This document shows positions 2,111 through 64,000 of a stretch of DNA of 64,000 bases, piece by piece. The notes beneath the pieces were generated by a model. The model worked only from the letters and a program-made list of their open reading frames with translations. It did no database searches and was not told the DNA's origin. The translations under genes and the position numbers were made by a program. How positions within the stretch are numbered: position 1 is the first letter of the stretch; each line of letters begins with the position of its first letter. The stretch is from contig OZ059898.1 in assembly GCA_964057225.1 (NCBI GenBank), positions 10,044,001 to 10,108,000 on the forward strand, written 5' to 3'. Source of the DNA: Auanema rhodensis (taxonomy: Eukaryota; Animalia; Nematoda).

Positions 2111-2181
2111 TGCATCGGCCGGGAATCGAACCCGGGTCGCCCGCGTGGCAGGCGAGCATTCTACCACTGAACCACCGATGC
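2111..2181 (-). tRNA. tRNA-Gly: tRNA-Gly(GCC)
   Basis: Minus strand GCATCGGTGGTTCAGTGGTAGAATGCTCGCCTGCCACGCGGGCGACCCGGGTTCGATTCCCGGCCGATGCA: full cloverleaf, A and B boxes, GCC anticodon, T4-5 run just downstream. Confidence 0.97.
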
Positions 2182-4132: not shown

Positions 4133-4203
4133 TGCATCGGCCGGGAATCGAACCCGGGTCGCCCGCGTGGCAGGCGAGCATTCTACCACTGAACCACCGA
4201 TGC
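4133..4203 (-). tRNA. tRNA-Gly: tRNA-Gly(GCC)
   Basis: Same 71-nt gene. Confidence 0.97.
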
Positions 4204-6391: not shown

Positions 6392-6462
6392 TGCATCGGC
6401 CGGGAATCGAACCCGGGTCGCCCGCGTGGCAGGCGAGCATTCTACCACTGAACCACCGATGC
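6392..6462 (-). tRNA. tRNA-Gly: tRNA-Gly(GCC)
   Basis: Same 71-nt gene. Confidence 0.97.
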
Positions 6463-7949: not shown

Positions 7950-8020
7950 TGCATCGGCCGGGAATCGAACCCGGGTCGCCCGCGTGGCAGGCGAGCATTC
8001 TACCACTGAACCACCGATGC
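7950..8020 (-). tRNA. tRNA-Gly: tRNA-Gly(GCC)
   Basis: Same 71-nt gene. Confidence 0.97.
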
Positions 8021-9509: not shown

Positions 9510-9580
9510 TGCATCGGCCGGGAATCGAACCCGGGTCGCCCGCGTGGCAGGCGAGCATTCTACCACTGAACCACCGATGC
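9510..9580 (-). tRNA. tRNA-Gly: tRNA-Gly(GCC); element 1 is inserted 62 bp upstream
   Basis: Same 71-nt gene. Confidence 0.97.
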
Positions 9581-9642
9581 TTCGAAAATGTTAGATTGTT
9601 TCCGAAAAATCATGAAAAGTCAAGTTCTACTGATTTGAAGAA

Positions 9643-10055
9643 TGTTCCATACGTGTCCTATAAGTAGAGCGATTGACAACGTCAATCGCTTATAAAACGG
9701 AACATTATAAAAACAAATAGCTGACGCTACATTTGAGAAACAGGAATTCAATGCAACAATGAACGAACACTTTTTCATATTAAGTTTAATTAAAGAAAGC
9801 CCAATTCAAGCGGAACCAAGTTCCGCGGACCTGATATAACCACTTTTTATGCTCGTAAGGAATACTATATAAGGTTTCCTTACGAATCCTTTGGGCTGCG
9901 ACTAGGAATCATTATGTAACTTTTATTATTGTAATTTGTATACTTTATCATGAATAAACCTTTCTCTCTATACTCTTTATCATTTATATTTGGAAGAAAA
10001 GAAAGTAATTCCATGTGGTTACCCAGCCGGAACCCTGGGGAACCACCATGGAACG
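9643..10055 (+). repeat. 5' LTR of element 1 (TGTTCCAT...ATGGAACG)
   Basis: Identical by eye to 21479-21891; TATATAA at 9866-9872; AATAAA at 9953-9958. Confidence 0.96.
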
Positions 10056-10073
10056 TGGAGGTTCCGCCGAGAT
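10056..10073 (+). promoter_or_regulatory. Primer-binding site, tRNA-Gln
   Basis: TGGAGGTTCCGCCGAGAT directly after the LTR; complementary, with one G:U, to the metazoan tRNA-Gln 3' end ATCTCGGTGGAACCT-CCA (recalled, not searched). Confidence 0.85.
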
Positions 10074-10111
10074 TCGTCTATAACCGACGAATCTCTAAGA
10101 ACCATATTTCG

Positions 10112-10470
10112 CTACATAAATTTAATTTTGTTGTCTTTCATACATCTAATTAAAGAATTATATTTCGATTATGCTATATGAATTTAATTTGAAATCTTTC
10201 TCTTCTTTATTTCATTCATTCAAAGAACTTTATTTTGATTTTGATTCATAAATTAATTTTGAAATCTTATATACATTTATTTAAAAAGATATATTTTGAA
10301 ACAACTTAATTTTGAAATTTTATATTCATTCATTTAAAAGAAACATTTCGATTTTTATCCATATTCTAAGATCTTTCATTCATTTTTGAGGAAAAACTTT
10401 GTTTATAACTATCATAAATTAATTTGAAATTCTTTTATATTTATTCATTTAAAGAAAGGTATTTCGATAT
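10112..10470 (+). repeat. Degenerate ~60-75-bp AT-rich tandem repeat in element 1 leader
   Basis: Recurring aattaattttgaaatc...attcatttaaagaa...atttcgat, about 5-6 copies. Confidence 0.55.
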
Positions 10471-10671
10471 TTTTTTTTTCTGTCAATCTTTTCTTTTTCT
10501 GTTTTTTTTAATCAAAATCTATTCTATCTCTTATAAATTTTTGTTATAAAGTTTCAAACAATTTTTGAATCAAAAATGAATTAATTTCTTTTATGAATCA
10601 TCACAAAATTCATTGTTTTATATATATTAAAATCCATTAATTTCTATTCTATCCTTTAAAATGTATTACTC

Positions 10672-10674
<3 letters not shown>

Positions 10675-10716
<42 letters not shown>
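10675..10716. repeat. (TA)n microsatellite, about 21 units
   Basis: Directly visible. Confidence 0.95.
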
Positions 10717-10721
<5 letters not shown>

Positions 10722-11500
10722 GTACAAAACTATTCTATACTAGTACTATATTCCTACTATATTCCTACTATATTCCTATTTTATTTTTCTTTTATCTTCT
10801 TTTAAATTTTATCTTTTTCCCTCTCTTATTACTATTATTTTTTCTCTTCTTCCTAATATAACCCAGAAAACAGTCAAATAATTTTGAAATTTTTTTTTTA
10901 TCTGAATCCCGAAACTAAGATTTATAATTTTGCATTTTGATCCTAAAAGTAGCCCGTGAGAAGCAATACCAGACTGTCTCGAGAACTGAGCGGAGGCAAC
11001 CACTATTTTTGATATAAGACGTACGCATTCCTGATTTTGAAGATCCCTTTTTGGTCCTATTTTTGCAAATTTGAAAATTACGACAGAATTAGTCGAGAAT
11101 GAAAGTGTTAGAGTGGTCTCACCATGAAAATCAGGGGAGCAGAATTTCGTTAAGGGAGCGATTTCTGTGAATTTTCATAGGCAAGAGAAGTCTGGGAAAG
11201 TGAATGTACGAGGCCTGAGCACCTAATCTTGTCGAAAGACTGAAAGGGAATACTGCTTAGATCACCGTCGTATATTTCACGCCTATTCGAGAGATGGGAA
11301 CTTGATCCTAGAAAGGGCGCACCGGTCACAGGCCCGTGTATGTACCCGATTGAGCAATTCTCCGTTAGAAGATTCGCTGCAGGCTGGCCCCCTAGCAAGC
11401 GTCACGCATACAACCCCATATTGCCTCTCACGTTGTATATATATTTTTATAAGTTTCGCATCGTTGGTATAATAATTTCCTTTCCAGGAAAACCAACAAG

Positions 11501-14500
11501 ATGACGGACTCGAAGAGTAAAAATCCTCCGCAGGATAAAACAAATCCACAGAGCGCAGCCCCCGGTAATGATACGCACGTCGAGCCAGTACTCGAGCGGA
11601 ATCAAAGAAAAAGAGGACCTCCAAATGTTTATGAGCCGGACACGAAGCGCCGACCTACTGCTGCAAAGAAACCACCCGCTATACCGGGTACCCCCGCGAA
11701 GAAAATAGGCACAACAGCTATTAAAACTTCTCGCCACGCTATTACTCTAAGTAAAATTAAAGCGTCTATTAGCAAACAAACTCCAAAACGCACTTCTAAT
11801 GTTATCAAAAGCTCTAGTAATGTTAGCACAAATACTTCCCCTTGTAAAGATTATTCTCAAATTTTATCTTCATACCCAAATACTGCTATTCTTTCTTCTC
11901 CTCTTCCTCGAAATTCTCCCTCTTCATCCGATCAATCATTACATGGGCAATCTTCTTCTCCTGTATCTTCTCCGTCGGAAGTAACCACCAATTTCAATTT
12001 GAATGTTGCAGAGAAGAGAAAAATCGCTCAGATGACTGACCGGATGGATGACCACCCAAACTCCAATGATCAAACCCAAAACAACTCTAATTTCCGCATG
12101 CTACCCACGAACACTGTTTCTATTCGCCACCATAAACCCACCTTGTATGATGGAGCAGTACCTTTTAACCTCTACATGAGGAGATTGGAAGGTTATTTTG
12201 ACGCGTTGCAAGTACCTATGGCGGAGCGTCTGTCGCACCTCTATCTATTGTTGGGGACGGACAAAGCAGCCGATGCTTTACGTTGCATAACTCCGGACGA
12301 AATACGTCAAGGATGGAATAACGTAAAGCGCATTTTGTCTCTCAAACTTCAACCTCAAGAGAAACGAGATGCCGCGTTCACCAGACTCACTCACATGAAG
12401 CAAGGAGAGAGTGAAACTGTCAACCATTTTGCACAACGCTGTCGAAATCTGGCTTATGAAGCAAGCGATATGAACACCGATGCTGATGAACGTATATTAC
12501 GTGTAGCTTTCCTCGGTGGATTACGGAAACAACTACGTACGCACGTCAATAATCGAAGCCCAACCACCTTTGAATCAGCCGTCACTATCGCTGAAACCGT
12601 TGAAGCAGATGAGGACCCCTCTTCCTTCATCAACAACTTAACCGATGGACTAGATGATTTGAATATCAATAACGAGCACATCAATCACATGAGAGCTCCA
12701 CAGCGTGATAAAATTCATAGAGGACCGGCACCACATCTATCATCCAGGCCACACGACAATTCCTCACATCCACAAAGACCTCAAGAACCATGGCACCAAA
12801 GACGAGGAGGATACCGTCATAACGATGAAAGAAGAACAGGAAGATACCACCAATACAACGACAGGAACAGGAACAACAGACCACGTTCAAGAGGACCAAT
12901 CAACTACCGTAGCCCACACAGAAATAATAGGTATAACGACCGTTATGATAACAGATACAACAACAACTATCATCGCGGAAACCAGTACGATCGAAGATAC
13001 CAGAACAGAGATCACCATGAATCATATGGACCTAATTCGCGCTACAGAAATCGCACAAGTAGCCCATCAGTACGATTCCATGTTAACCAAGTTAACAATG
13101 AAACACCCCGCACGAGCAACAAGAAACTTCCATTCACACCTCTCTTCCTTTCCATCATGGCACTGACAATACTTCCTTGTCACGCAGACAACACCTACCA
13201 TCTATGCACCGGAACACGAGGAGGCATCTTTCTCGAACCCCCTCGGCCAACTTTATGCTCAGAAAACATACACAAGGATGGAGTTCAAATTACTAACGTC
13301 GAATTATTTGCAGAAAACATGCATTACAAGGAATGGGAGGCTTGGAAATGCTCCAAAGAAATCTACAGAACATGTGCTCACGATAGACTGTTCATTAGAG
13401 AAAACAATATCACTCTACTTTACGTCGAAGCCGCAACTCTCAAGGAATGTAAGGAAGCTATACAAGAAAGAAGACATATGGATACGAATCTTGTACGTAC
13501 AGCCCCAGGACTATTTAAGGCACCTTTACCTTTAAACAATCAGTCTTATTCATTTTGGTCTACATCGTGCACCTCAACTCCAAGATTAACGTTAGAAAGA
13601 GGAATGATGACTTGTCTACATGACGATATCATCATATCAGACCTTTTTCTCAACACGGAAGGATGTGCAAAGAAAGCAGGAACTTGTACAACGCACAATG
13701 CCATAATCGTTTGGACACCACCTCACGACCATCACGAATGTGACTTCAGCTCCTTAGGAAACTTCTCAGCACTTGTCAACAACGACACTGTCCTAATCTC
13801 GGAGATACAGAGCGCATTTATCCTCCAAGACCAGAAACCGGATAACATAGCAACTCGATGTTTAGGAAAGGATATACATGCAACGAATAGTGGTACATAC
13901 ATTCATATACCACCTAAAGAGACTCCAAGACGACAGAAAAGGAAAGCGCCACAAGAATACCCTACACGCTTTTTCAATATCACCATATATCCATCGTTAC
14001 GTCTTACGGACAGCTCTACAGGAATTATTCCAATGTATCAGAAGTATCGCAACCGGAAAAGATTGGATAATTCTTACAGTCTTATAGACTATCTGAAAAC
14101 TTCCAGTATTCACGTAGGACTTACAAAATTCCTCAAGTTAGACGCAATCGCGATCAAGGAAACACTATTATGGTACAACTACAACGACACTAATATCGCC
14201 ATTCTACATGCGCTGGCAAAAGCAGAAATTCTCCTAGCAACAGAAATTGCTATCGCGCATCTCCTACCATCTGAGCTCACAGAAAAACTGAGTAAACAAA
14301 TCACGATTAAGGAGTTCGCCGATAAGTTGGAAAAACGCACAGGAGACTACTTAGAGCGAGCGAGAGACATTGCATTTGAAATCGCACAAACTCCCGCAGT
14401 ATTAGCAACAGGAGAAACGATTCCTTCATTAGAAGAATATTTATTTCAACTATACCCACCTAGGATGTCGAGAAGAACAACTCCTAGAATGGACACTTCG

Positions 14501-17308
14501 TTTTACACACAAATCGACGAAGTATTAAACTTTATTGACTATATAGCATCACATAATCGTCTGCTACATATATCAACAGAAGAACGCGAAAAAGAGAGCA
14601 GAAAGTGGAATAAATTGGAAGAGGAATCAACTAGTCCAAGGATTATTTTTCCTAATTACGCAATCATCTTTAAAGGACTAGCTCAGAACTTTGGACTGCC
14701 ACGTGGTACACCAACGACTAAAACTATTTCACAGGAAGAAAGCGAGAGATTTCAACGAACATATCTTGAATTAATCGACTCCCTCACGTATTCAACAACA
14801 ACGACTACGACTACCACGACTTCCGCAAGCACTACAAGCTCTACTACGCCCGCGACTACAACAACGACTTTTCGAACTACTCCCAAACCTTTCCACACTC
14901 CCAGAACATTATCACCAAGCTCTACAACTACTCCAAGAAGATATCACTACTATCAAGCTACGACAACGCCATTCTCATTACCAAAACAGCTTGTAACGCG
15001 AACAGAAATTCCGCAAATCTCTTCAACAGTGATAGAGCCAAGGACAACAACCAAACGAGCCGCCACAACACCTCAACAAGCAAGAGAAGTCCAATCTCAC
15101 ATAGGACAGCAAGCACACGCTAATTTTCTTCGTACAAGACATGATATCATCCAGAAATATGATGAACAATTACGTCAACTGGATACACAATCGCATCTAC
15201 AATATTCAACCTCGCAACTAGAAGAAGAAATTTTGAAGGCGTTTCAAAAAACGAAAAAGGACATCTGTAGGATGCAAAACAAACAACTCCTTACGTGGTG
15301 GGCCATTCTACAAATCAACCCAACTATTGGTATCCGCACAATGCTTAGACGTCAGGATATATCAGCTAAATTCGTTGCTGAACACCTTATCTACGTAATG
15401 CCTTGCACACCTATCCACGTAACAAAAATCTACTCGGATCACAAAAGAAACGGAACATGTTACATGGAAACACCAGTAGATACAGAACATCATGGAGAAC
15501 TGTTTTTAATACCTGGAACACGCGATATTTCACCAATGGGCAGACGAATCGACTGCATGATGGCTACAACGGATCCATATAAATTAGACGACCAATGGAT
15601 GAAGGAAAACACAACATTAAATGTGACGAACCTATCATTTGCGGACGAACTCACTTCGATCAAAATCGATCACATAAAATTCAACAACTCCAACATATAT
15701 GCCAACCTCACGGAATCTTCATTCCCGTTTGAACTCGCTATTTCATACGGATCCAGCCTAGCGTCTCTACAAGCCACCTTGCCAGGAAGATTGAAACCTA
15801 TATTTAACAACAAGAAAGGAATCAGTCTGAATCCACTCAACATTCTTGAAAATGCCATAACAATTCCTATCGTAGTGGGAGACATCGTCGGAAACACGGC
15901 AAACGAAGGAATTTCCAGCTTCTTCGCTTTTATTGGAGAAACTTTCAAGGCCTGGCTATTAAGAACACTTGCCACAATCGGCGCAATCATCGTGATAATA
16001 GGACTCATCACCGCGCTGATTTACGGAATCAAAATATACGCACGTGTCACAAGAATTCCCATCAATTATATCGAAGAAGATGATGAAGAAAGAAGAGAAC
16101 ATCCAGCCCAAGAGACCGAACTGCAGCCGTTAAGAAGAGCGACACAAGACAACTACCATGCTCCACTTTCACGCTATGATCCCGATGCACCATTAACAGA
16201 TAGCGATCTGCTAACCTATCTGCCCAGGTACGCTATTAAAGAATCAAAGATAAACTACATTGGGGGATCCCGATTACCATTCGTACCCATATCAATTTAC
16301 AACCAAGTTTTTACTGCACTATGGGATACAGGTGCATCAATTTCATATATGAAAGAGAGCACTTTCAATCAATTACCGGCAGCAAAAATGGTCGCTGAGA
16401 AAACTACAGCTGTTGTAGCAAACAAGTCTCGATTTTCCTTCCTAGGATATACAAGACTGCCAATAATAATTGGAAAGACCGAAATTGACCACAAAATATT
16501 GATATCTTCCGACAATCATTGCCCAGCACCAATATTGCTTGGAATAGATTTTATTGAAGCACTCAACAGAGAAGGAATCCTCACATCCTTACGCCCTCTG
16601 CAAAATTCATTGCTGATTGGAGATACCACGGTACCTCTAGCGCAAAACTACAATGCATGGACAGAAAAACACACAATTACACACGTTGTTAGTCTGGAAA
16701 CTAAACAATTTTACCCCGGAGAAACAAGATCTCTAACTTTGGAAGTAAATGATCCCGCCTCATTCGAACAAGCTTTTATTAGAAGCTCACAACGAGCAGG
16801 AAAAATGAGTTTTGCGCCTACAACTTTCACCCCAACAGGATATGGAGTCCAGATATTTGCTACAAATATCTCTTCGGATACAATCGAAGTCCAGACAAAC
16901 CAAGGCATTGGAACAGCTTATGCTATCCCCAAAAACACGGAGGAGCAAAAAGGACAATATGTACCACCAGAAGCAAGATGGGAAGATCAACTACCATTCT
17001 TCCCAGATGATTTCATAAAAGATCTAGATGTCTCAAATTCCATCTTCACTCAATTAGAAAGACAACAATTAAAGAAAATAGTACTTAGAAATAAGGAAGC
17101 TTTCTTGAACGAGGATCGAAATATCGGACTTTTCAAAGGACCAGTGGAACATAGCATCCCGATCATCGAAGGAAAAGTTCCATCTTTCAAGATCACGTAC
17201 AGAATACCTCTATCACAACAAGAAGAAGTAGAAAAACAAGTGGAGGAAATGTTAGAACAAGGAATAATTGAGCCATCTTTTTCTATGACTACCAGTCCCG
17301 TAATATAG
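11501..17308 (+). CDS. gag: Gag - class III envelope glycoprotein - aspartic protease - RT N-terminus polyprotein, ended by in-frame TAG
   Basis: Capsid motifs YDG...MKQGESETVNHF...FLGGL; R/N/Y-rich NC-like region without CCHC; signal peptide; Cys-rich ectodomain; TM; ALWDTGAS; RT start ...QGIIEPS..SPVI*. Confidence 0.92.
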   Translation: MTDSKSKNPPQDKTNPQSAAPGNDTHVEPVLERNQRKRGPPNVYEPDTKRRPTAAKKPPAIPGTPAKKIGTTAIKTSRHAITLSKIKASISKQTPKRTSNVIKSSSNVSTNTSPCKDYSQILSSYPNTAILSSPLPRNSPSSSDQSLHGQSSSPVSSPSEVTTNFNLNVAEKRKIAQMTDRMDDHPNSNDQTQNNSNFRMLPTNTVSIRHHKPTLYDGAVPFNLYMRRLEGYFDALQVPMAERLSHLYLLLGTDKAADALRCITPDEIRQGWNNVKRILSLKLQPQEKRDAAFTRLTHMKQGESETVNHFAQRCRNLAYEASDMNTDADERILRVAFLGGLRKQLRTHVNNRSPTTFESAVTIAETVEADEDPSSFINNLTDGLDDLNINNEHINHMRAPQRDKIHRGPAPHLSSRPHDNSSHPQRPQEPWHQRRGGYRHNDERRTGRYHQYNDRNRNNRPRSRGPINYRSPHRNNRYNDRYDNRYNNNYHRGNQYDRRYQNRDHHESYGPNSRYRNRTSSPSVRFHVNQVNNETPRTSNKKLPFTPLFLSIMALTILPCHADNTYHLCTGTRGGIFLEPPRPTLCSENIHKDGVQITNVELFAENMHYKEWEAWKCSKEIYRTCAHDRLFIRENNITLLYVEAATLKECKEAIQERRHMDTNLVRTAPGLFKAPLPLNNQSYSFWSTSCTSTPRLTLERGMMTCLHDDIIISDLFLNTEGCAKKAGTCTTHNAIIVWTPPHDHHECDFSSLGNFSALVNNDTVLISEIQSAFILQDQKPDNIATRCLGKDIHATNSGTYIHIPPKETPRRQKRKAPQEYPTRFFNITIYPSLRLTDSSTGIIPMYQKYRNRKRLDNSYSLIDYLKTSSIHVGLTKFLKLDAIAIKETLLWYNYNDTNIAILHALAKAEILLATEIAIAHLLPSELTEKLSKQITIKEFADKLEKRTGDYLERARDIAFEIAQTPAVLATGETIPSLEEYLFQLYPPRMSRRTTPRMDTSFYTQIDEVLNFIDYIASHNRLLHISTEEREKESRKWNKLEEESTSPRIIFPNYAIIFKGLAQNFGLPRGTPTTKTISQEESERFQRTYLELIDSLTYSTTTTTTTTTSASTTSSTTPATTTTTFRTTPKPFHTPRTLSPSSTTTPRRYHYYQATTTPFSLPKQLVTRTEIPQISSTVIEPRTTTKRAATTPQQAREVQSHIGQQAHANFLRTRHDIIQKYDEQLRQLDTQSHLQYSTSQLEEEILKAFQKTKKDICRMQNKQLLTWWAILQINPTIGIRTMLRRQDISAKFVAEHLIYVMPCTPIHVTKIYSDHKRNGTCYMETPVDTEHHGELFLIPGTRDISPMGRRIDCMMATTDPYKLDDQWMKENTTLNVTNLSFADELTSIKIDHIKFNNSNIYANLTESSFPFELAISYGSSLASLQATLPGRLKPIFNNKKGISLNPLNILENAITIPIVVGDIVGNTANEGISSFFAFIGETFKAWLLRTLATIGAIIVIIGLITALIYGIKIYARVTRIPINYIEEDDEERREHPAQETELQPLRRATQDNYHAPLSRYDPDAPLTDSDLLTYLPRYAIKESKINYIGGSRLPFVPISIYNQVFTALWDTGASISYMKESTFNQLPAAKMVAEKTTAVVANKSRFSFLGYTRLPIIIGKTEIDHKILISSDNHCPAPILLGIDFIEALNREGILTSLRPLQNSLLIGDTTVPLAQNYNAWTEKHTITHVVSLETKQFYPGETRSLTLEVNDPASFEQAFIRSSQRAGKMSFAPTTFTPTGYGVQIFATNISSDTIEVQTNQGIGTAYAIPKNTEEQKGQYVPPEARWEDQLPFFPDDFIKDLDVSNSIFTQLERQQLKKIVLRNKEAFLNEDRNIGLFKGPVEHSIPIIEGKVPSFKITYRIPLSQQEEVEKQVEEMLEQGIIEPSFSMTTSPVI
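13121..16030 (+). other. env: Env-like class III fusion glycoprotein domain inside polyprotein 1
   Basis: Signal KKLPFTPLFLSIMALTILPCHA (13121-13186); N-glycosylation sequons; furin site RRQKR (13928-13942); Thr-rich tract; gB-like ICRMQN..W..INP..CTPI..CY..PV..P.TR..IDC (15263-15556); TM 15953-16030. Confidence 0.82.
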
Positions 17309-20308
17309 GTCAAGAAAAAGGATAAAACATATAGATTTGTGACTGATTTTCGAGCACTTAACGCAATAACGCAAAAACAAATCTACGTTATATCTAACAT
17401 TCAAGATATCTTGGACCTAGCAGCCGGAGCACGTATCTTCAGTAACTTTGATCTAGTATCTGGATTCTTTCAAATCCCTCTTAGATCAGAAGATAGACAC
17501 CTCACCGCATTCACTACTACGAGCGGAACTTATCAATACTGCAGAATGCCGATGGGACTCTGCGGAGCTCCACACACATTCCAAAATGCAGTACGATATT
17601 TACAACAACACGTACGATGCAAGCTCTTCGTCTATCTCGACGATCTACTTCTCATATCGGAATCAACGACAAAACATTTACAAGATATCGACGAAGTACT
17701 GAACGCATCAGCAGAGCTAGGATTAAAAATCAAGCGTAAGAAATGTACCTTTGGACAACAAGAAGTCAAATTCCTAGGATTCATTGTTGGACACGAAGGA
17801 ATAAAACCAGACCCTCAGAAAGTAAAAGCAATCCAAGATTATCCAAGACCAAAATCAATCACAGGAGTTCGAGCATTCATGGGAGTTGTAAACTACTTCC
17901 GGAGATTCATTAGGAATGCCGCAGGCATTGCATCACCGCTTTATGACCTCACAAAAAAGGATAAAACCTTCACATGGGGAGACAAAGAAGAAAAATCTTT
18001 TCAACACCTAAAGAAAGCACTTTGCGAAGCACCAGTCCTCCAAGCGCCTAGAGCAAAACGGCCATATGTAGTCGAAAGCGACGGAAGCATTATTGCAGTA
18101 GGAGCAGTTTTATTGCAATCCGCGGACGACCGAGAACCACTACACCCAATAGCTTTCGCTAGCCGTAAACTGAACAGAGCAGAAAGGAACTATCCTCCCA
18201 TTGAGATTGAAGCCTTAGCTCTAACTTTTGCGGTTCACCAATTTCGTACCTACATCCTAGGGGCACCGATCAAAATTATTACCGATCATAGACCCTTAAC
18301 CAGTCTTATGACGAGGAAAGATCTTATTGGAAGATTAGCCAAATTTCAAATAGTACTCCAAGAGTATGACATTGAAATTATCTATCGCCCAGGACGCCTT
18401 AATAGCGTTTGCGACGCTTTATCAAGGTACTTTGAGGACGAAATTAACGAAGCAAAAGAAAGGAAAAAGAAGCCGACAATAAAGACAACATCTCATCAAG
18501 TTTCGACAATCTCAACTGTAACGGACCTAAGGACCATTCAAAACGACACAGAATGGATCAAAGAAACTAAAGAGAAGCTGTCAAATAACAACGCTGGGAC
18601 ACAACTAACGGATAGATACATCGTTTTGAATGATGTTCTATACGCTAAACCCAAATCAGCTCTACAAACTCCACGAGCTATTCTGCCAAGTGACTCATCA
18701 ATTACCACACCAATTATCGAGAAATTCCACAAAGACCCCATTCTCGGAGCACATCTTGGAATCAATAAGACTCAAGACTCCATTTTGCGACGGTACACTT
18801 GGACAGGAATACAGGATGATATCACAAGATATGTGAACAGATGTCTCGACTGTGCAAAGAGGAAAAATAACCCACATGAAGCCACAGTCGAACCAATGAG
18901 AAACTTCCCAACAGTGACACATCCATGGGAACGAGTTCACATGGACATACTAGGACCATTACCTAGAACTGCAAAGGATAATAGATACATTTTATCTATA
19001 CAGGACGCATTTTCCAAATGGATTATAGCGATACCATTAATTCGTCAGACATCAGAAGAAATAGTATCAGCTATTATGACACACTTATTCTATGTCTTCG
19101 GACCCCCAAAGAAAATCATCACAGACAATGGATCAAACTTTGTCTCACACGAATTCAAAAGCATGTGCGATAACCTTGGATCGGAACATCACACTACTAT
19201 GCCATACTACAAGAACGCAAATGGTCAAGTAGAACGACTACATAGAACGCTGGAAGAAGCATTAACTTCTTACGTTAATGCCGATCAAGATAATTGGGAC
19301 ATTATTTTACCCAAAATTGTCTTTACGATCAACCGACTACCAAACGCCACAACTCGCACACCACCCTACGATTGTCTATTTGGACAAACAGCTCGTCTAC
19401 CAATGGATAAGGACCTAGAAACACCAGAAGCCACAATCAAGAACGCCCCAGATTTACATAAGAAGATTCAGAATAGAATTGAATTAAGTAATGAAAGGAT
19501 GAAAAAGAAATATGACGAGAAACACAGAACCGAAGAAAGAGAGATCTACGTAGAAGATAGGGCATTGGTCAAACGAGCAAAACCAACGAACAAATTGCAA
19601 AAGACGAGCGATGGACCATATATCATCAAGAAGATAATTGGAAATAATGTTACGTTAGCAGATAGGGAAGGAAAAACGATGAAGGCTCACAAAAATAACA
19701 TCAGATTTTTCCCTCCGGATGACAACCCAACGGAAGAAATTACACTGATGACCAGAACTCATTTATCTGATTCGGACAGTGAAGAAGAAACGTTCTATCA
19801 AAACGAACAACCATTTACACGAAACAGCCCGTCGACAACAAATATCAACGAAAATACTTTGGAAACAGACATAGAACTTGCGGAAAGTTCACAAATCAGT
19901 CCAAATCAGGACGCACCAATACCAGGAATCACAGAAGAAACGTCAACAACAGAGTCTAGAGAACAAAACCAGACGATCAAGGCTTTTCAAAAACTATCAG
20001 AGGAAATAGAAGAAAACGCAAGAAAAGAATTATATGAGGAACGGAAGAAGGAGCCACCCACAATTAAGAAATGGAGTTCAGCACTTAAATTGGCATTGGG
20101 ATTAGAAGATAATTCCCCTACAACGCCAGCAAAACCTTATCATGTGCCGATAAGGTATCACAGCACCATACCAGTAACAGAGCCGAAGAAGAGAGTTTCG
20201 AAGAGTCAGATCCCGGACCCAAACTTCGTGGCACCAACAGTACCAGTCATCCATAAAAAAAGACCATCAACAGTTATTGGGACTACAAGTAAGAAGCTAG
20301 AACAATAG
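17309..20308 (+). CDS. pol: Pol: RT, RNase H, integrase; same frame as the upstream ORF, resuming right after the TAG
   Basis: VKKKD..RFVTDFR, MPMGL, YLDD (17633-17644), ESDGS/ITDHRPL/DALSR, H-H-C-C, D-D-E (MDILGP, TDNGSNF, VERLHRTL), GPY. Confidence 0.95.
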   Translation, partial: VKKKDKTYRFVTDFRALNAITQKQIYVISNIQDILDLAAGARIFSNFDLVSGFFQIPLRSEDRHLTAFTTTSGTYQYCRMPMGLCGAPHTFQNAVRYLQQHVRCKLFVYLDDLLLISESTTKHLQDIDEVLNASAELGLKIKRKKCTFGQQEVKFLGFIVGHEGIKPDPQKVKAIQDYPRPKSITGVRAFMGVVNYFRRFIRNAAGIASPLYDLTKKDKTFTWGDKEEKSFQHLKKALCEAPVLQAPRAKRPYVVESDGSIIAVGAVLLQSADDREPLHPIAFASRKLNRAERNYPPIEIEALALTFAVHQFRTYILGAPIKIITDHRPLTSLMTRKDLIGRLAKFQIVLQEYDIEIIYRPGRLNSVCDALSRYFEDEINEAKERKKKPTIKTTSHQVSTISTVTDLRTIQNDTEWIKETKEKLSNNNAGTQLTDRYIVLNDVLYAKPKSALQTPRAILPSDSSITTPIIEKFHKDPILGAHLGINKTQDSILRRYTWTGIQDDITRYVNRCLDCAKRKNNPHEATVEPMRNFPTVTHPWERVHMDILGPLPRTAKDNRYILSIQDAFSKWIIAIPLIRQTSEEIVSAIMTHLFYVFGPPKKIITDNGSNFVSHEFKSMCDNLGSEHHTTMPYYKNANGQVERLHRTLEEALTSYVNADQDNWDIILPKIVFTINRLPNATTRTPPYDCLFGQTARLPMDKDLETPEATIKNAPDLHKKIQNRIELSNERMKKKYDEKHRTEEREIYVEDRALVKRAKPTNKLQKTSDGPYIIKKIIGNNVTLADREGKTMKAHKNNIRFFPPDDNPTEEITLMTRTHLSDSDSEEETFYQNEQPFTRNSPSTTNINENTLETDIELAESSQISPNQDAPIPGITEETSTTESREQNQTIKAFQKLSEEIEENARKELYEERKKEPPTIKKWSSALKLALGLEDNSPTTPAKPYHVPIRYHSTIPVTEPKKRVSKSQIPDPNFVAPTVPVIHKKRPSTVIGTTSKKLEQ

Positions 20309-20671
20309 TAAAAATCCATAATTTCTACATAAAAATCACAAAAAGTATAATACCATTTTCATAATTTTCATCTAAACTTGAAACCTATATATAATTTTTT
20401 TTTCTCATTTAAGTAATACATAAAATTCTACACAAATTATTGTACATTTTTATTTTTCACTCTCATAAAAATATTGTATTAATAACCAAAAATTTCAAAA
20501 TAAAATTATACATCATACTTGGAATCTTTCAAAAATCACTGCAAAGTTTTAATCAACAATCTTCATCACTTTTTCACCTAACTGGTCAAAAAGGAGGCGA
20601 CAAAAAGGAAGGAACAGACCGACCTAGTTTTAAAAAGGATAAAAGGACAGAAAACAGTAACAAAGATAACA

Positions 20672-21274
20672 ATGTCCACCCAACTTCCTGAAGCCGTCGA
20701 AATTCCCCTCATGATGGCCAAAAAGAGATGGCTTTCAATTCAACTATTAGTAAGAGAATTGAAGCAGCTAGGCGCCAATACCATCGCCAACCGCCCCAGG
20801 AAAGAGAAGATCCTGAAAGAGTTAGTTCAAGGACTAACAAGAGCGAACACCAGTACTGAAACGCTCAAAATCCTATGTTACCAATACGACAAGGATCAAC
20901 TGTCGGAGGTTGACCACTGCATAGGACCATGGACCAACATAGCAGGAGTCATCCGAGATGCCATTGCTGAACTAAGGGACCAACTAGGTTATTCACCTAG
21001 TTGCGATTCACCAGAACAGCAGACACCAAACTGGATTATTGCCGAGACCCATTCGGCCTATCAAGAATGGAGCCTGCAACATTGCAGCGAACTGCCATCC
21101 ACAGAGGCAAGAAAAAGCATTATAAATGCTCTACAAATATTTCTGGCATCACCAGCAACCACCAAGGAAGAAATGGAAAGAAAAACGGATTTATGCAACA
21201 AGACTATGGATCTTCTCCACGACCTAGGATCATCACCATTACCAGAGATACACCAGTATTATGAAGAAGACTAA
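20672..21274 (+). CDS. Accessory ORF of element 1, 200 aa, unknown function
   Basis: ATG with A at -3 (acaATG), composition like pol, set between AT-rich spacers, no TM or recognisable motif. Confidence 0.7.
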   Translation: MSTQLPEAVEIPLMMAKKRWLSIQLLVRELKQLGANTIANRPRKEKILKELVQGLTRANTSTETLKILCYQYDKDQLSEVDHCIGPWTNIAGVIRDAIAELRDQLGYSPSCDSPEQQTPNWIIAETHSAYQEWSLQHCSELPSTEARKSIINALQIFLASPATTKEEMERKTDLCNKTMDLLHDLGSSPLPEIHQYYEED

Positions 21275-21478
21275 AAAGGAACTTTTGAAAGATTCCCAGT
21301 ATGATATATGATATATTATTTTGTAATTACATTGTTTTCCTTTATTTTTTTCTCATAAAATTGTTCTGTATTATCAGTATTCTTTTATTTTTTGAAACAT
21401 TTCATACAACTTTCACATTTGCATGGAATTTCACTTTCTCGATGTAGCTGAGGTCAGCTACTTTTTCGATATTAGGCA

Positions 21479-21891
21479 TGTTCCATACGTGTCCTATAAG
21501 TAGAGCGATTGACAACGTCAATCGCTTATAAAACGGAACATTATAAAAACAAATAGCTGACGCTACATTTGAGAAACAGGAATTCAATGCAACAATGAAC
21601 GAACACTTTTTCATATTAAGTTTAATTAAAGAAAGCCCAATTCAAGCGGAACCAAGTTCCGCGGACCTGATATAACCACTTTTTATGCTCGTAAGGAATA
21701 CTATATAAGGTTTCCTTACGAATCCTTTGGGCTGCGACTAGGAATCATTATGTAACTTTTATTATTGTAATTTGTATACTTTATCATGAATAAACCTTTC
21801 TCTCTATACTCTTTATCATTTATATTTGGAAGAAAAGAAAGTAATTCCATGTGGTTACCCAGCCGGAACCCTGGGGAACCACCATGGAACG
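21479..21891 (+). repeat. 3' LTR of element 1
   Basis: Direct repeat of 9643-10055. Confidence 0.96.
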
Positions 21892-52737: not shown

Positions 52738-52808
52738 TGCATCGGCCGGGAATCGAACCCGGGTCGCCCGCGTGGCAGGCGAGCATTCTACCACTGAACC
52801 ACCGATGC
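52738..52808 (-). tRNA. tRNA-Gly: tRNA-Gly(GCC); element 2 is inserted 62 bp upstream
   Basis: Same 71-nt gene. Confidence 0.97.
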
Positions 52809-52870
52809 TTCGAAAATGTTAGATTGTTTCCGAAAAATTATGAAAAGTCAAGTTCTACTGATTTGAAGAG

Positions 52871-53214
52871 CGTTCCGTTATGCTCCTGCGTCGATAATAT
52901 AAACCATTGTAGTTTATACCATGACGCGAATAGTATTCCTTGGTGTAGCGGTAGGAATACAGAGCATAAGGTCAATCATAAGATAAAATAGAGAAAGATT
53001 TATTAGCATGAAACTACAACAATAATATACAAAGATAAAGATACAATACAATAAGATAAATATAAGTATAAAGACTAAACTACAAGCCGTCCATGAGCTT
53101 GCTAAGAGGCGAACTCCCGACCCAGGGAACGAGGCAAGGCGGAGCCATTCCTCGGTCCTCTGGTCGTCTGGCTCTAACCCTTCAGCTACATATATGGGGA
53201 GTCCGAATGGAACG
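52871..53214 (-). repeat. Inferred 3' LTR of element 2 (344 bp, CGTTCC...GGAACG)
   Basis: Inverted termini; sense strand preceded by purine tract plus GGCA as in element 1; AATAAA (52999-53004) in a context (catg..aataaa.ctttctct) shared with the element 1 LTR; partner LTR not visible. Confidence 0.78.
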
Positions 53215-53225
53215 TGCCCTTTTTC
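53215..53225 (-). promoter_or_regulatory. Polypurine tract of element 2
   Basis: Sense GAAAAAGGGCA abutting the inferred LTR start. Confidence 0.65.
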
Positions 53226-53909
53226 AAAGATTTTTCGCGTCCGCGCGATATAAAGAGTTTTTAGTGTATATGTAGCTGAGTTTTAGAGTCTAGGAGTCTA
53301 CAAATAAATTTAAAAGTTTCAAAATCTACATGTAGAAAGATATATAAATAGTTTTAATAGGTTTATTTATGGTATTAAGATAGAATTTGAATACAATAAT
53401 AGGTTTTATGTTATTTTGTAACGGAGGATTAGAAAATAAATTTAGTCATTGTAGTACTGTAATAAAAAAAAATTTCTTTGTTTCATGAATGTGTGATTTA
53501 TGTGAGACAATAAGGAATTATTAAACATTTCGGTTACATGGTTACTCGTATCCTAATGATGATGGGGATAATTTTAGTTAATAATTTACTCGTCTCCATA
53601 TGTCTCTCTAAATGAATCCTTGAGTACTAATGGAGGCTACCACTCAGATGGGGTGTGGCTTAGGCGCCTGCCAATGTTCGTCTCTTCTTGGAGATACATA
53701 TGGAGCTCAGTTTAGCGCAAAATATTATCTCTATCGGTCGTATAGGATTACGGTAACCATTTATTTCTATTATATTCTCACTTATTCCTTAGTTTTGGTT
53801 GTTTACTCACTTAATCTCTCATCAAAAAGTTTTCTAATTCACCGTTACTTTCATTTTACAATTTACAGAAAAGAAAAGAATGTATATAAAGTTATTTCTT
53901 GTCGTCTTT

Positions 53910-56900
53910 TCATGCTTTCTCTTTTTGATTTTTCATCCGTGGTAACCATAATTCATCTCCATCTTCGTTCTCTGATTCCGGTTCGCTATCGGTGTTATCT
54001 TGCTCGTTTCTTTTGATCACTCTTAGTATCTCTATATCGCTGTCCTCTTCTTCTTCTTCGTGATTGTTGCGTGTATTAGAGCGGGTATTGTGAGTGATAT
54101 TTTGAGTCGCGTTTGAGAAGAGTTTGAGATTATCCTTGTGGATATCTTGTATCTTTCCTGATGAATTCCTTATCTGCACCTTGGATCCTTGTACGTTAAT
54201 AACTTCGTAAGGTCCGTCATAGCTTTTCCTCAGTTTCTGACCAATTTTATGTGACTTTATTGTTGTCATCACCATGTCGCCGGGTTGAATGTTCCTTTCG
54301 TGCGTTCTTTGTGTTCTATCCTTCTTCTTTCTGGCGTTTTCTTGGTTTTGGGCGATACGTTCACGTATTATTTGGTCTATTTTCATCATTTGAGGTCTTC
54401 TCGTGAGTAATTCTTCCGAAATCTCTTTGATTTTTGTTATGGTTCCCGGTAATTCGGCATCAATTTTCATTCTGCATTCTTTTCCAAAAAGTGCTACGTA
54501 TGGGGCTATGCCTGTTGTAGCATGCTGAATATTATTGATAGCGAATGTAATTTTTGGCAATACGCTATCCCAGTCGCTTAGATCTTCCTTCAAGTAGTGT
54601 GTTAATCCTTCCTCAAGAGTTCTGTGTAGTCTTTCGACTTGTCCGTTTGAGTTCTTTTGGTGAGGAAGGGTGGGTTCATGTTGAATTCCCAGTTTTGTAC
54701 ACATTTCTTCAAACTTTTGAGATACAAAATTAGATCCTCTATCGGTGATCAGTCGATGAGGCGGTCCGTATATGTATACAAAGTTGCGTAGAAATCTGTC
54801 AATTGTTATTTCTGTCGTAATTTGCGGTACTGCTATCGTGGTTGACCATTTAGTAAAAGCATCCTGGATGGTAATAACGTAAGTACAATTCCTTTTTGAC
54901 GGGGGAAAAGGTCCCATTACATCCATATGAACCCGTTCAAAAGGCTTGGTCGGTATTTCAAATTGACCTATTGGCTGTACTGTCATAGAATGTGGGTCCT
55001 TCTTCCTTTGTGCGCATTTAATGCAGTTTTTGATATATATCATGATATCATTTTGCATGTTGGTCCAATAAAATCTCCGTAGGATGGCTTCTTTAGTTTT
55101 ATTAATTCCTTGATGCGCTGCGATTGTAGGATCTTCGTGAAATAATTCTATTATCTCGTCCTTGATTGGATGATCTTGTGGCACAACGATTGCAGGATGT
55201 GGTTTCTTGTCTGTTGGTTTTGTGTAGAGTAATCCATTTATAACGCAATATCTATCGTTAGAGACCATTTTCTTTTGCGTTCTATATTCGATGTCCGCGA
55301 TTGTTTTCTTTATCCATAGAGTATTTTGTTGAATTTCTTTTATAGCAGGTGTATCAATAGTATTTATTCTGATCGATTCTGCGTTTTTCTTTTTCTTCTT
55401 TTCCGGCTTTGCATCATTTGCTTCATCGCCTATATAACGTGACAATGCATCACATACTTTATTGAGCTGGCCCTCTCTGTACCTTATCTCAATGTCGTAT
55501 TCTTGTATTACTAACTGAAATTTAGCAAGACGACCAAATAGGTCTCTGCGAGTTAGTAAACTTGTGAGAGGGCGATGGTCAGTGATACATATAGTATGCG
55601 TTCCCAGTATGTATGTGCGAAATTGATTCAGTGCATATACTAACCCTAAGGCTTCAATTTCGATTGGTGCGTAATTGCGTTCCGCTTTTACCAGTTTTCT
55701 GCTGGCAAATGCGATAGGATGAAGATGCTTCAATGGTTGCGTTTGATCTTCTGGTTGCAATAATACTGCGCCCACTGCTATGTTGCTGCCGTCACTCTCG
55801 ATAATGAATAATCGATCAGATTTTGGTGGACTTAATACAGGCGCTTGGGTGAGACTTCTTTTTAATCGATCTACAGCTTCCTGATGTTGCTTTTCCCAAG
55901 CGAATTCGGTATCCGTCTTTGTCAAATCGTACAATGGGCTTGCGATACTTGCAAAATCTTTAATGAATTTGCGAAAAAATCCAACCATTCCTAAGAATGC
56001 GCGAACGCCTGTTGCGTTCTTTGGTGCCGGATATTCTTGTATCGCAGCCACTTTTTGAGGGTCCGGTTTTATTCCTTCTCTTCCAATTATTAATCCAAGA
56101 AATTTTACTTCTGGTTGAGCAAAGGCACATTTCTTTAACTTAATTTTCATTCCCAAACTTTCGACCGCATGTAATAATTCGTCGATATCTTCAAGGTGTT
56201 GCTTTCTTGTATCAGAGATTATCAGCAGATCGTCCAAGTATACAAATAATTTGCAAGAGCATTTACTTTGCAAATATCTTACTGCTGTTTGAAAAGTATG
56301 AGGGGCTCCGCAGAGACCCATAGGCATTCTTTTATATTGATACGTGCCTGATGTTGTTGTAAATGCTGTTAAATGACGATCAGATTTACGTAGTGATATT
56401 TGAAAAAATCCTGATACTAAATCGAAGTTTGAGAAGAATTGAGCTCCAGCTGCCATGTCAACTATATCCGATATGCTTGGTATAACGTATGTTTGTTTAC
56501 GCGTGACACTATTGAGGGCTCGAAAATCTGTCACGAACCTATATGTCTCATCCTTCTTCTTCACTAGCACAGCAGGGCTATTGAAGAGGGATGTAGAGGG
56601 TTCGATTATGCCTTGCTCTAGCATTTCTTTTACTTGCTTTTCCACTTCTTCCTGTTTACCAAGTGGAATCCTCGTTATTCTTGACCTTGGCATGTCCATA
56701 TCCGATCTTAGTGGAATTGTATGCTCAATGGGTCCTTTAAATAGACCTATCTTCCTATCTTCATTAAGAAAGGCCTCACGATGGTTCTTAACTATGTTTG
56801 TGAGCTCGTGCTTGTCTTCATTATTCAAATCTGCTTTATCCAGATTAAGGTCATTCATAAAATTTCTTGGAAAGTGGGGTAATTTATTCTCCCAATCTGC

Positions 56901-59900
56901 TTCTGGAGGAATATATGGTTGCATAGGGTCTTCTTGTATTGTTTGCCAACTTGGTACTTCTCCTATTGTTGCCTGCCCTATGACTGAATTAGCTTCCATA
57001 GCTAATGTTTTGTCCGTATTGTTACGGAAAACTACATATACTCCACTTGTCTCACGGAAAGCTGTTGGATAACTTGAAGCTAATGCATTTCCGTTGTCTC
57101 CTAAGATTACCACTTCGTTTGATTTAAGTGGTCTATCAGCTTTGATTGGAATAGTGGACTCTTCATCGGGTTGTATGATTCTTTTCTTCAAATTGATGAT
57201 ATTTACTGTTATTGCCGTTTGTTTAATGGGGGGGGGGAGTGCGTAATTTCCGATCTCTAGCATCTTTTTCGATGGTTTTAAACTGACATCAATGTTTTCA
57301 CTGTCGAGCGTGCTCATAAAGTCCATCCCAATAAGAGCAGGGGCTGGGCAATCACAGTCATTTGAGACCAAAAAGGTATGTTCTATCTCATAGCCAGCAA
57401 TTTCGATGTTTAAATTTATTTTTCCGTATAATGTAAACGTTGTTTTGTTTGCTGCCATTGCCACTAATCGTCGCTTTTTGACGTGTTGAGCCATGTTCAG
57501 GTATTTTAATGTCGATAGCCTGACATATGAGACTGACGAGCCTGAATCCCATAAAGCTAATATCAGCTTATCTTCTACTGATATATAGATAAGTGGTAGC
57601 TTTGTTTCTTTTGATTTAATAGAAGCAATAAATGGTATTGCTAGTGGAATGAATGTTACGAGCGCCGGGTAATACTGCTTCATTATATTTTCTGGCATTG
57701 GTTGGTCTGGGCGGCTAACGAGTTCTAATGTTTCCTCGTAGCCTGGGGGCTCGTTGTCTGCTCTTTGAATATGCATGACTGGTAGTGGCATTGCTTTGAA
57801 AAAGTAAAATTTTCCGGCAAAGATGGTAATTATGATTGCTGCAATGATTAGAACAGTAGATCCTATTAATATTAAGGTTCTTTCAATTGTCCCCATTAAG
57901 AATTGTTTTATGCTATTCCAGGCTGTAGTTGTGAACTCAGTTGCTTTCGAAATATAATCGCTGCCCTTTTTCAAAAGAATAAAGGCTGACGTTATCTTTG
58001 GGTCGTTGTGAATCGTATTTAGTACGTGATTTTGTCGTATTGAAGCTAAACTAGCTCCATACGCTATTGCGGTAGTCATTGAATAGACTCTTGATGAAAG
58101 ATTAGTATAAAGATGAGCACCTGTAAATTTTAAAGGCGTAACTTTATGTTGGTGAGCTCCATCAAAAAGTGTGATGGGATTGACTTCCGCAGACCCATTA
58201 ATGTTCATCCATTCCCCGTTTTTCTCATAAATATCAGTTGGTACGTGTTCGCAGTCGATTTCTTTCCCGTACGAGAGTAAATCTCTTGATCCCGGTGCTG
58301 CGAAATATAATTTGTTGTCTTCGGTTGTTACTGGTGTCTCTAAGTAACATGTTTCATTGATTTTATGAGAGTGGTGAACGGTTTTAGGCTCTATTGGTAG
58401 GCATATATGAACATGAACTATTTCGCTGCCCACGAAACGCGCTGCTATGTCTTCTCTGCCGAGGATTGTTCTCATTGCTATGGTTGGCTCTATTTGGAGA
58501 ATTGAACGCCACAATTCGAGATATCTATTTTGTATCTCGCATATGGATTCGTAAGATTCCATAAAATGCTTTTGCAATTCTTCCTGTATAAGAGTGGTTG
58601 CATATTGTAGATGATCTTGCGCTATTCTCTGAGATATATTCTGTTTATATTGTATCTCGTTGTTTACTTTAAAGCCTATATAATGTGCTTGCGCTTGTAC
58701 TGCTTTCGTTTCAATCTCCAAAGGTGGTGATGACGTTCTCTGCTTTCTTTGCGATCTTAAAGACATATCTGTGACCGTTGCAAACGTAGTAATAGGCTGT
58801 TCTTTGTGAACACCATATATTAATGTAACCGTTGTTGGGGCGCGCGTGGATGTTATGGTTTGAGTTATATCGATCTCTGGCGTTGTTTGAGGGTCCTGGA
58901 TTAGCTTTGTTACTTCCGTTGTTGTCGTTATATATTCCGTTTTGTCTGTCAGGCGTCTGGTTGAGTAGGGAGGTGTTCTTTTATCCTCTAGTAGCGGTAG
59001 AAAGGTTTGAATGAGAAGATTTCGTGTATATTTGTTAGGACTTTTTGTTTGTTGATGGGGCCCAACAGGTATACCAAAATTATTCTCCATATCTCGATAT
59101 AATTTCTCTATATGTGGCAGGATAATAGTTGGTACAGGCAGATGTCGAAATCTTTCATCGTCTGCTCTGGCCGCTGTTTGATTGGGTTTTATTGTACGTA
59201 GTTTGAGGACTTGGTGATATAGGTCAATTGTTTCTTTAATAATCAGTTGTTCCTTTTCGTTATTAGTTGATAATACGGGCCTGATTGGCGGCATGTTTAC
59301 AAATGCTTTCAAAACTTCTTGTTTTGATGGCACCGACATGTTATTTTGAGCGAAAATGGTCGGTGTAAATGCCAACTCGAGCGCTATACTTTCGGTTCGC
59401 TCTCGATAACTTCCTTCTTTTGTGAGTATTTTTTCGTCAAATTCTTCTGCTGTTAATCTGTCGCCTATCTGCTCTAAAAGTTGCAGGGAGGTGAGGTATT
59501 TAACGGCTCCTCTTGTGGTAGCTGCCAGTTCTTTTTGGGCGAAGAATTGAAGCATTGCTTCTTCCGGGTCGTAGAATTCATATATTTTTAAGAATCTTTC
59601 TATTGATCTATCCGAAGTAGTGCTTCGTAGGAAGAATTTGAACTGCTCGGGATGTGCTGAGATCCACTTAACGATAGAATATGTTGGATCTATTGTCCGT
59701 CTGGCTCGAATTATAGGAATTATTTGTGATATCCCAGGGTTACTCATTACTGGACGTAAAAATAGGTATGGGCATATGTTCAATGTTAAAGTTTCGTAGT
59801 CTTCTTGTTCTTTTATCCAGCTTTCGTCCAATTGCAGTGCGCATTGCGCTATAGCCCTTTTTTGACGCTTAGCTGGCAACTTTTTATATTCTCTTTCAAT

Positions 59901-62831: not shown

Positions 62832-64000
62832 TCTGACTCCGCCTATCTACCGTAAGCTTATTATAGTTAATGATGTTTATCTCTTCTCAAAAACTATTTT
62901 AATCCGCTCTTGCACTTTCCTCTAATTTTGTTTTCTTACTGCTCTAGAATCTTCAAAAAAAAAACTTTATTCATGTCGTCCCCTTTGTACTTTTGCGGCC
63001 TTTGGACATTTATTTTAAGGTTAGAAACAAAAGAAAAGAAAAGAAAGAAAGAAAAAAAATGGATTTCCAACGTTATAATCCCACTGGCATGACTTATGTC
63101 CTGTGGAAATTATACGAATCCATCGTTGAATACGATGGAGAAGGAGTTTTGGCTTATAGGCCACATCCTGATATAATTTTGATGGTTTGTGTATCTCCAT
63201 TTTATGTTTGATTATTTGATTACTTTAGTTTATCGAAGATCTCCAAATGTATTATTTGGGGCAGGGCCATATAAACTTTGCCACCTTCGTAGATGTAGCT
63301 CCCGAAGTGGAGCTTGTTGGTCGAAGGTGCTTAGTTGATCTATGCGCTCATGTATATAATGGTAGGGCCGGTTTATTAACCGTACGTCCTTGGGCCTGGT
63401 ACCGGGAAAAGAGTCATTTTTATTATTATTTATTATATAGATTATTGTTTAAAATCTATATTGTTTATGATGACTCATTATTTGGTTTGGAACTTAGGGT
63501 TTCGCGAGGTTTAGAATATAGTGAAGATTTAATTGCGAGCGAAACTCCTATGTTTCTTGCCTCTGAGTTTCGAACTCGGTTGCAAATCAAATATGGGTAT
63601 TGACTGAATAAAGTTTGTACTCTGTGTTTTTATTTTTGTGCACTTTGCTCTGTTTTCGTCAAGAAAATGGACTTATGTTTGCAATCTTTTCCTCATTCCT
63701 TTTCCCTTAAATAGCATGTTTTGCTCAAAATGTTTTCGACATTGTGCATGCTAATGAGGTTTGAGGAGAGTTATTGAAAAGGCTGTCCTTTTTCTTGATC
63801 AAAATAAGCAAAAGTGCGTTTTCCTAAGCGAATTTCTTTTTAAAATGAGAAAAATACGTCTATTTTTAAACATTTCCAATTTACTTAGGATTACTGTAGG
63901 AGATAAGGGGTATCTTATGAGTTGAAACAACGAAATGATTTGAGGAAGGTGACATAATCTACGGGGATAAAATCCGTAGCAGTTATGCTTCCGCCAACTT

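Follow-up and report, generated by a model that had tools for sequence, protein, structure and literature searches.

A recently inserted, reverse transcriptase-defective GAG-ENV-POL Ty3/gypsy element beside a tRNA-Gly gene in the nematode Auanema rhodensis

Introduction

Non-canonical endogenous retroviruses of nematodes, as described by Sacco et al. in 2022 (J Gen Virol, doi 10.1099/jgv.0.001739), are said to have gag-env-pro-pol as one continuous ORF, together with a nyamivirus-like env and one more, small ORF. According to the eLife survey of Chary & Hayashi (PMC13524379), the flipped env order was first reported by Sacco et al. 2022, and the sections of the survey cited here describe Ty3/gypsy 'errantiviruses' of Nematoda, Bryozoa and Platyhelminthes that carry an HSV/gB-type ENV in the order GAG-ENV-POL. 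The ectodomain of these elements may be flanked by two membrane segments, a tRNA-Gln primer site is given for 8 of 36 nematode rows in supplement 1, and the mechanism by which the elements are transmitted is, in the words of the survey's cited sections, still unknown (PMC13524379).

A second body of work concerns retroelements that insert beside tRNA genes. In Table 1 of PMC5911963, which covers fungi and amoebae only, these are Ty3, Tj1 and Tca8 of yeasts, DGLT-A and TRE5 of Dictyostelium, and NLTR-B of P. pallidum, and safe-site targeting next to tRNA genes is documented for hosts of both kinds in the part of that paper drawn on here. Among open-access titles and abstract openings, we found no metazoan LTR element that targets tRNA genes.

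Here we describe two related elements in a 64,000-nucleotide stretch of the A. rhodensis genome (contig OZ059898.1, positions 10,044,001 to 10,108,000), hereafter the window. A sequence-only reading of the first of them had presented its gag-env-pol plan as unusual, on the premise that env is placed 3' of integrase; this premise misses the published GAG-ENV-POL elements, and the claim of novelty does not hold, the order having been published for nematode Ty3/gypsy elements (PMC13524379). That reading also went without the likely protease sites beside both membrane anchors, the stop codon in the reverse transcriptase (RT) and the insertion point that the two elements have in common on the tRNA side, to which much of the present text is devoted.

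Results

The features of the window are collected in Table 1. A satellite array of AT-rich, ~231-bp units (151 unit anchors counted) spans positions 1-9459 and 21892-52870, and is broken by non-satellite blocks at 9459-21891 and 52688-64000. The identical LTRs of element 1 and the AGAA repeat that flanks them indicate that the copy is young, and element 1 is thus a recently inserted but, as assembled, RT-defective element. The LTRs of both elements end in GGAACG instead of CA and have short inverted termini. The bases upstream of the 3' LTR are not purine-rich in element 1, and their counterpart in element 2 is.

Table 1. Positions of elements 1 and 2, their parts and their flanking genes, counted from the first base of the window
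Feature	Position	Strand	Remarks
5' LTR	9643..10055	+	413 bp; termini TG...CG, short inverted ends; 100% identical to 3' LTR
3' LTR	21479..21891	+	413 bp; 100% identical to 5' LTR
Target-site duplication AGAA, 4 bp	9639..9642	+	Second copy 21892-21895; un-inserted flank visible at 29 empty sites
Primer-binding site	10056..10067	+	1 mismatch against tRNA-Gln 3' ends of Caenorhabditis GAG-ENV-POL elements, as given in supplement 1 of PMC13524379
Gag	11501..13120	+	Low-complexity N-terminus, capsid-like domain 12257-12526, R/N-rich NC-like region without CCHC
Predicted viral-protease site VNQV, directly ahead of signal	13082..13093	+	Candidate, from motif
Internal signal sequence, predicted cleavage after aa 562	13121..13186	+	Hydropathy and motif only
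Class III (gB/nyamivirus-G-like) ectodomain	13187..15952	+	15 Cys; Pfam, model, Foldseek
Furin-type RQKR (aa 811) in ectodomain	13931-13942	+	Motif
Env insert, ~400 aa: helical domain and Thr-rich stalk	13943..15100	+	Helical part without clear known fold
Transmembrane helix	15953..16030	+	Hydropathy
Cytosolic linker with two predicted INYI protease sites (16061-16072, 16250-16261)	16061..16261	+	Putative
Aspartic protease, LWDTGA	16277..16564	+	Pfam, motif
In-frame TAG within N-terminal part of RT	17306..17308	+	Disrupts element 1 copy
Remaining RT (YLDD 17633-17644), RNase H, integrase, C-terminal tail	17309..20308	+	Pfam
Integrase Zn finger; integrase core	18695-18868; 18917-19210	+	Pfam
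Extra 200-aa ORF between pol and 3' LTR	20672..21274	+	No family found
Host tRNA-Gly(GCC) gene	9510..9580	-	Its 5' end is 62 nt away from the start of element 1
Host tRNA-Gly(GCC) gene	52738..52808	-	Its 5' end is 62 nt away from the end of element 2
Element 2	52871..62846	-	gag-env-pol frame 53910-62846 uninterrupted
Element 2 3' LTR	52871 to about 53214	-	Start placed from inverted terminus; 5' LTR outside window

Pfam and hydropathy bear out both the order gag-signal-env-TM-PR-RT-RH-IN and the positions that had been proposed for it. In the polyprotein of element 1, Retrotrans_gag falls at aa 253-342, Monjiviricetes_fusion at aa 1229-1374 (E 3e-15), herpesvirus Glycoprotein_B at aa 1231-1311 (E 6.7e-6, below the curated cut-off) and an aspartyl protease at aa 1593-1688 (below cut-offs), while RVT_1, RNase H, the integrase Zn finger and rve all lie in the frame of gag and env. 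No CCHC knuckle was found in the NC-like region, and the extra 3' ORF gave neither a Pfam nor an Atlas match. The pol order PR-RT-RH-IN is of the Ty3/gypsy type, with env placed between gag and pol. A BEL/Pao identity (Atlas, Cer7/13 type) was rejected, as the env is of class III and upstream of PR rather than of class II and 3' of integrase, and as the nearest relatives of the RT are env-before-pol nematode proteins. A chance order or an assembly chimera was likewise rejected, the same order being found in element 2 and in many database proteins. The two elements follow one plan, and are 38% identical over 2,629 aligned residues.

The earlier statement that one frame runs from gag to integrase stands as far as the frame is concerned, but not as an uninterrupted reading: from the ATG at 11501 there are 1935 codons to the TAG at 17306-17308, followed by 999 in-frame codons to 20308, with no further break across the 2,935 codons. 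Because of this stop the copy cannot make RT or integrase without read-through. We read the stop as damage at the level of this copy, element 2 and the relatives being continuous. The alternative is a competent copy, the stop being either an error of sequencing or assembly or a codon that is read through. This view draws on the fully identical LTRs, on the solitary break, and on contigs from public runs that cross the codon without a stop in 4 of 4 runs. Those contigs, however, derive from a sibling ~5% diverged (about 30 differences per 500-700 nt) and not from the element 1 copy, so that they do not separate a private mutation from an assembly error, and programmed read-through is made improbable by the protein records of relatives, which lack a stop at that place; we consider a competent copy unlikely. 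In the public runs a high-depth 3' end, beginning at 19991, joins other upstream sequence (in three runs the high-depth part continues into it), and a divergent patch at 16998-17125 precedes RT. Judging from this junction and this patch, the window copy of element 1 may be a recombinant mosaic.

To place the lineage, the RT-IN region of element 1 was used as a query and matched 112 long proteins. An env match was present in 26 of the 115 proteins examined, with env before pol in 21 (both window elements included) and after it in 5. A HMMER scan with the ectodomain returned 247 representatives at E<=0.001, and the 147 new ectodomain matches comprised 47 proteins with env before pol, 11 with env after pol and 89 with no pol domain; hence env preceded pol in 47 of 58 held-out proteins having both, and gag, env and pol followed one another in a single chain in 22. 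The env query alone, run against longer proteins, had given no match, a weak negative that the RT-IN and HMMER surveys overturned.

The sequence-only reading had looked to an RT phylogeny, and in our RT-RNase H tree (FastTree, midpoint root, 72 of 109 usable rows after 37 non-env rows were dropped, the published elements' own sequences not being among the rows) element 1 indeed groups with nematode env-before-pol proteins. Both window elements belong to a 17-row clade (support 0.997) in which env precedes pol throughout; its other 15 members, all from the database, bear names that assign them to Auanema, Caenorhabditis, Diploscapter or Ancylostoma. Element 1 has an Auanema protein as its sister, the two being 70% identical over RT-IN. 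Five env-before-pol polyproteins (P0022, P0026, P0041, P0045 and P0061) stand outside the nematode clade, consistent with the published non-monophyly, and one of these, P0022, also carries C2H2 fingers and extra protease domains.

The Env ectodomain of element 1, judged by its sequence matches and its predicted fold, is a class III fusogen. A PDB sequence search with the ectodomain gave 5 sequences, all of them herpesvirus gB (best E 0.0034). The AlphaFold2 model, built from 17 sequences, is of low overall confidence (pLDDT 59, pTM 0.34), but its N- and C-terminal parts, both rich in beta structure, are confidently predicted, and it has a long central helix of 69 residues. When this model was compared by Foldseek with the PDB, herpesvirus gB occupied all 38 rows listed (best E 1.3e-8), and against BFVD the best matches were the G proteins of Beihai rhabdo-like virus 3 (E 9.6e-16) and Midway nyavirus (4.2e-12). 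The TM-scores were low (0.13-0.23), as is to be expected from the large insert and the uncertain domain packing. These gB and nyamivirus-like G matches agree with the earlier proposal that the ectodomain resembles a viral fusogen. Of its 15 cysteines, 14 are kept in at least 10 of 17 aligned rows.

The spacer between ENVn and ENVc is 400 aa in element 1 and 427 aa in element 2, versus 59-365 aa in the others measured. The helical part of the insert is common to element 2 and to 3 of 261 other proteins tested, all three from Auanema. The insert (model pLDDT 59) has no Pfam family and no BFVD match at E<=0.001. Two candidate identities were rejected: a death domain, for which the best match (VIA Z 5.7, rmsd 3.2 over 62 residues) lay within the chance level, and a CD-NTase-like helical domain, for which the Atlas matches (<0.9, few shared features) were too weak.

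In 4 of 4 public runs, contig depth had its minimum over env and its maximum over the LTR; in run X1, for example, it was 19 over env, 207 over RT, about 650-1,180 over the 3' end and about 1,350-1,950 over the LTR, depth here not being copy number. This pattern suggests many siblings or derivatives with a common 3' end, with the same proviso that depth is not copy number. One might instead read the scarcity of env relative to RT, 3' end and LTR to mean that Env no longer serves cell-to-cell spread, being a membrane scaffold, or that the family moves mainly as env-less derivatives. Against this, rows with no more than 17-32% identity to element 1 still keep the cysteines and the C-terminal core, the furin-type site is common to both elements, and the high-depth RT contigs are diverged siblings that possibly carry other env genes. 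We regard either of these readings as very unlikely.

How such a frame would be translated is a separate matter. A scan for slippery sites returned eight heptamers in gag-env and no sign that a frameshift is needed. Expression might nonetheless be governed by splicing or an alternative start, with Gag, Env and Gag-Pol made from subgenomic RNAs and the through-frame product minor. The nematode splice-acceptor consensus resembles TTCCAG, and this acceptor-like sequence is found at 11482 (13 nt ahead of the ATG), 14101 and 15913. The first of these (11482-11487) follows a long AT-rich 5' leader. Element 2, moreover, has 402 open Met-free codons ahead of its first ATG (61641-62846, minus strand), a stretch likely to need a spliced leader exon or a non-AUG start, and Cer1, a single-frame gag-pol element, uses splicing according to the section of PMC10309623 cited here. 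On the other hand, the 22 held-out single-chain proteins keep gag, env and pol together, and the predicted protease sites by both anchors make sense only where Gag-Env and Env-Pol are translated as fusions. Splicing or an alternative start as the main route is in our view improbable; since equal Gag:Env:Pol would be odd for the building of a capsid, splicing or turnover may adjust the ratio.

The topology that had been put forward, with Gag in the cytosol, Env in the lumen and Pol in the cytosol, is supported by hydropathy and the Pfam order. A 20-residue uncharged run (aa 542-561), preceded by Lys-Lys, terminates in C-H-A at aa 562. Hydrophobicity is strongest in the polyprotein at aa 1481-1517 (peak 2.61). 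In 11 of 11 proteins examined, env was preceded by an uncharged run 14-30 aa in length, and a TM was found 61-102 aa ahead of PR.

A [VI]N-x-[VIL] motif recurs ahead of the signal, after the TM and ahead of PR, the last being where self-cleavage is expected. The motif was picked by eye on a first set of proteins and scored within a 30-residue segment (one protein without a protease motif was skipped). The strict form turned up in 8 of 11 proteins ahead of the signal (0.8 expected), in 9 of 16 past the TM (1.1 expected) and in 6 of 16 ahead of PR (1.1 expected), and was not enriched ahead of IN (0 of 14), where the segment may be misplaced. With the rules for motif and segment fixed, a held-out set of 147 proteins, whose members as relatives are not independent, gave 14 of 59 ahead of the signal (3.3 expected), 8 of 31 after the TM (1.9) and 9 of 35 ahead of PR (2.2), an excess of about 4-fold; control segments gave 0 of 59 and 1 of 31. 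Most held-out proteins lack the motif in the scored segment (45/59, 23/31 and 26/35, respectively). Mapped Ty1 protease sites have V or I at P2 and P2' and hydrophilic residues at P1/P1', in the part of PMC6952103 cited here, Ty1 being a copia-type element whose site preference is only an analogy for that of element 1. From the motif counts and this analogy, the motifs are likely viral-protease sites that would free membrane-anchored Gag and Pol.

The satellite array carries 31 near-identical tRNA-Gly(GCC) genes, all on the minus strand and 24 of them identical, each in a ~173-bp cassette. Both window insertions (2 of 2) lie exactly 62 nt upstream of such a gene, in opposite orientations, and the flank of the other 29 tRNA-Gly genes is empty. 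The array has 1,304 bases for each tRNA gene, so that uniform insertion would place a second element at this offset with a chance of about 1 in 1,300; insertion is thus site-specific. From these two events, it is likely that the integrase of the elements selects one defined position upstream of the array's tRNA-Gly genes.

What fixes the common point may instead be the sequence at the satellite junction, and not the tRNA gene or the Pol III machinery. The near-identical junction motif is present at 88 intact sites, of which 29 are beside a tRNA gene, so that both insertions would lie beside tRNAs by chance with a probability of about 0.12; a base-exact coincidence also suits sequence recognition, and, among the junctions listed, another LTR junction (run X7) runs into AT-rich DNA of unknown kind. 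What speaks against it is that both window insertions (2 of 2) hit units with a tRNA gene, and that among the same junctions one from run X5 enters a tRNA-like 5' arm ~5 nt past the LTR end, in a flank unrelated to the satellite. Read by eye, this arm may be that of a different, tRNA-Pro-like gene. Guidance by the junction sequence is on this evidence a serious possibility, somewhat less likely than not.

A broader reading would place the elements in an enveloped Ty3/gypsy lineage of animals with Pol III genes as its target, in which 38%-identical families insert at the same base, a third copy lies by another tRNA, and Gag and Pol are doubly anchored to the membrane and released by protease. 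We hold this to be tentative and rather doubtful; if true, it would mean that an LTR element targets tRNA genes in a metazoan. Relatives in metagenome contigs (79 loci) were distant (26-43% in the best segment) and had no env match, and a tRNA gene was found in none of the 79 although it was found in the window control, a result that is uninformative on targeting. A scan of viral contigs found no relative of element 1.

Discussion

Taken together, these findings point to a scheme for how one gag-env-pol polyprotein could build an enveloped particle without a frameshift or a matrix domain. A single frame encodes Gag-signal-Env-TM-PR-RT-RH-IN. The internal signal would open translocation, and the class III Env would be released by signal peptidase, with a possible furin cut at RQKR. 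The signal stub would then anchor Gag and the Env tail would anchor Pol, so that all parts gather on one membrane, an arrangement that would replace both matrix domain and frameshift. As the motif statistics suggest, cuts by the protease would fall ahead of the signal, past the TM and at the N-terminus of the protease itself, and Gag and Pol would enter the budding particle. By analogy, trimers of Env would bring about fusion between the particle and a target cell, e.g. of the germline. The insertion of two families at the same base is observed, and an integrase preference would lie behind it. The element 1 copy would itself need Pol in trans or read-through.

We consider it probable that this account holds as a whole: a recent, RT-defective copy of a nematode GAG-ENV-POL element, whose polyprotein would span the ER membrane two times and be processed by signal peptidase and its own protease, and which inserted at a fixed site upstream of tRNA-Gly. 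If fixed insertion on the tRNA side holds genome-wide in this nematode, it would extend a convergent safe-site strategy to animals and to env-bearing elements.

It is instructive to compare element 1 with several known systems. The structural polyproteins of flaviviruses and alphaviruses begin with a capsid followed by an internal signal and are processed by host signalase and viral protease, their fusogens being of class II and their replication through RNA; the likeness to element 1 is one of topology only, with no homology implied. With the class III fusogens (herpesvirus gB, nyamivirus and chu-like G) the ectodomain shares Pfam, PDB sequence and Foldseek matches and the long central helix. 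In contrast to these, the Env of element 1 is within a retroelement polyprotein and has a large helical and Thr-rich insert.

The tRNA-targeting retroelements resemble elements 1 and 2 in their fixed distance upstream of a tRNA gene and in their insertion in either orientation, as for DGLT-A, and the 62 nt seen here are within the 39-64 bp of NLTR-B, in the part of PMC5911963 cited above. They differ in that the present host is a nematode, that env is present, and that two insertion events only are at hand.

The closest resemblance is to the nematode GAG-ENV-POL elements. The main text of the eLife survey does not contain the terms 'polyprotein', 'frameshift', 'tRNA gene' or 'insertion site', and in the part of that text cited here protease-site processing and tRNA-adjacent insertion are absent from the discussion (PMC13524379). 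Element 1 differs from these elements by its RT stop and, together with element 2, by having the longest ENVn-ENVc spacer among those measured. It shares with them the gene order, a gB-type env, a Ty3/gypsy pol, a tRNA-Gln primer site and a length of about 12 kb, and C. remanei, C. nigoni and C. brenneri proteins are found in its RT clade. Element 1 is a defective new member of the known nematode GAG-ENV-POL Ty3/gypsy lineage.
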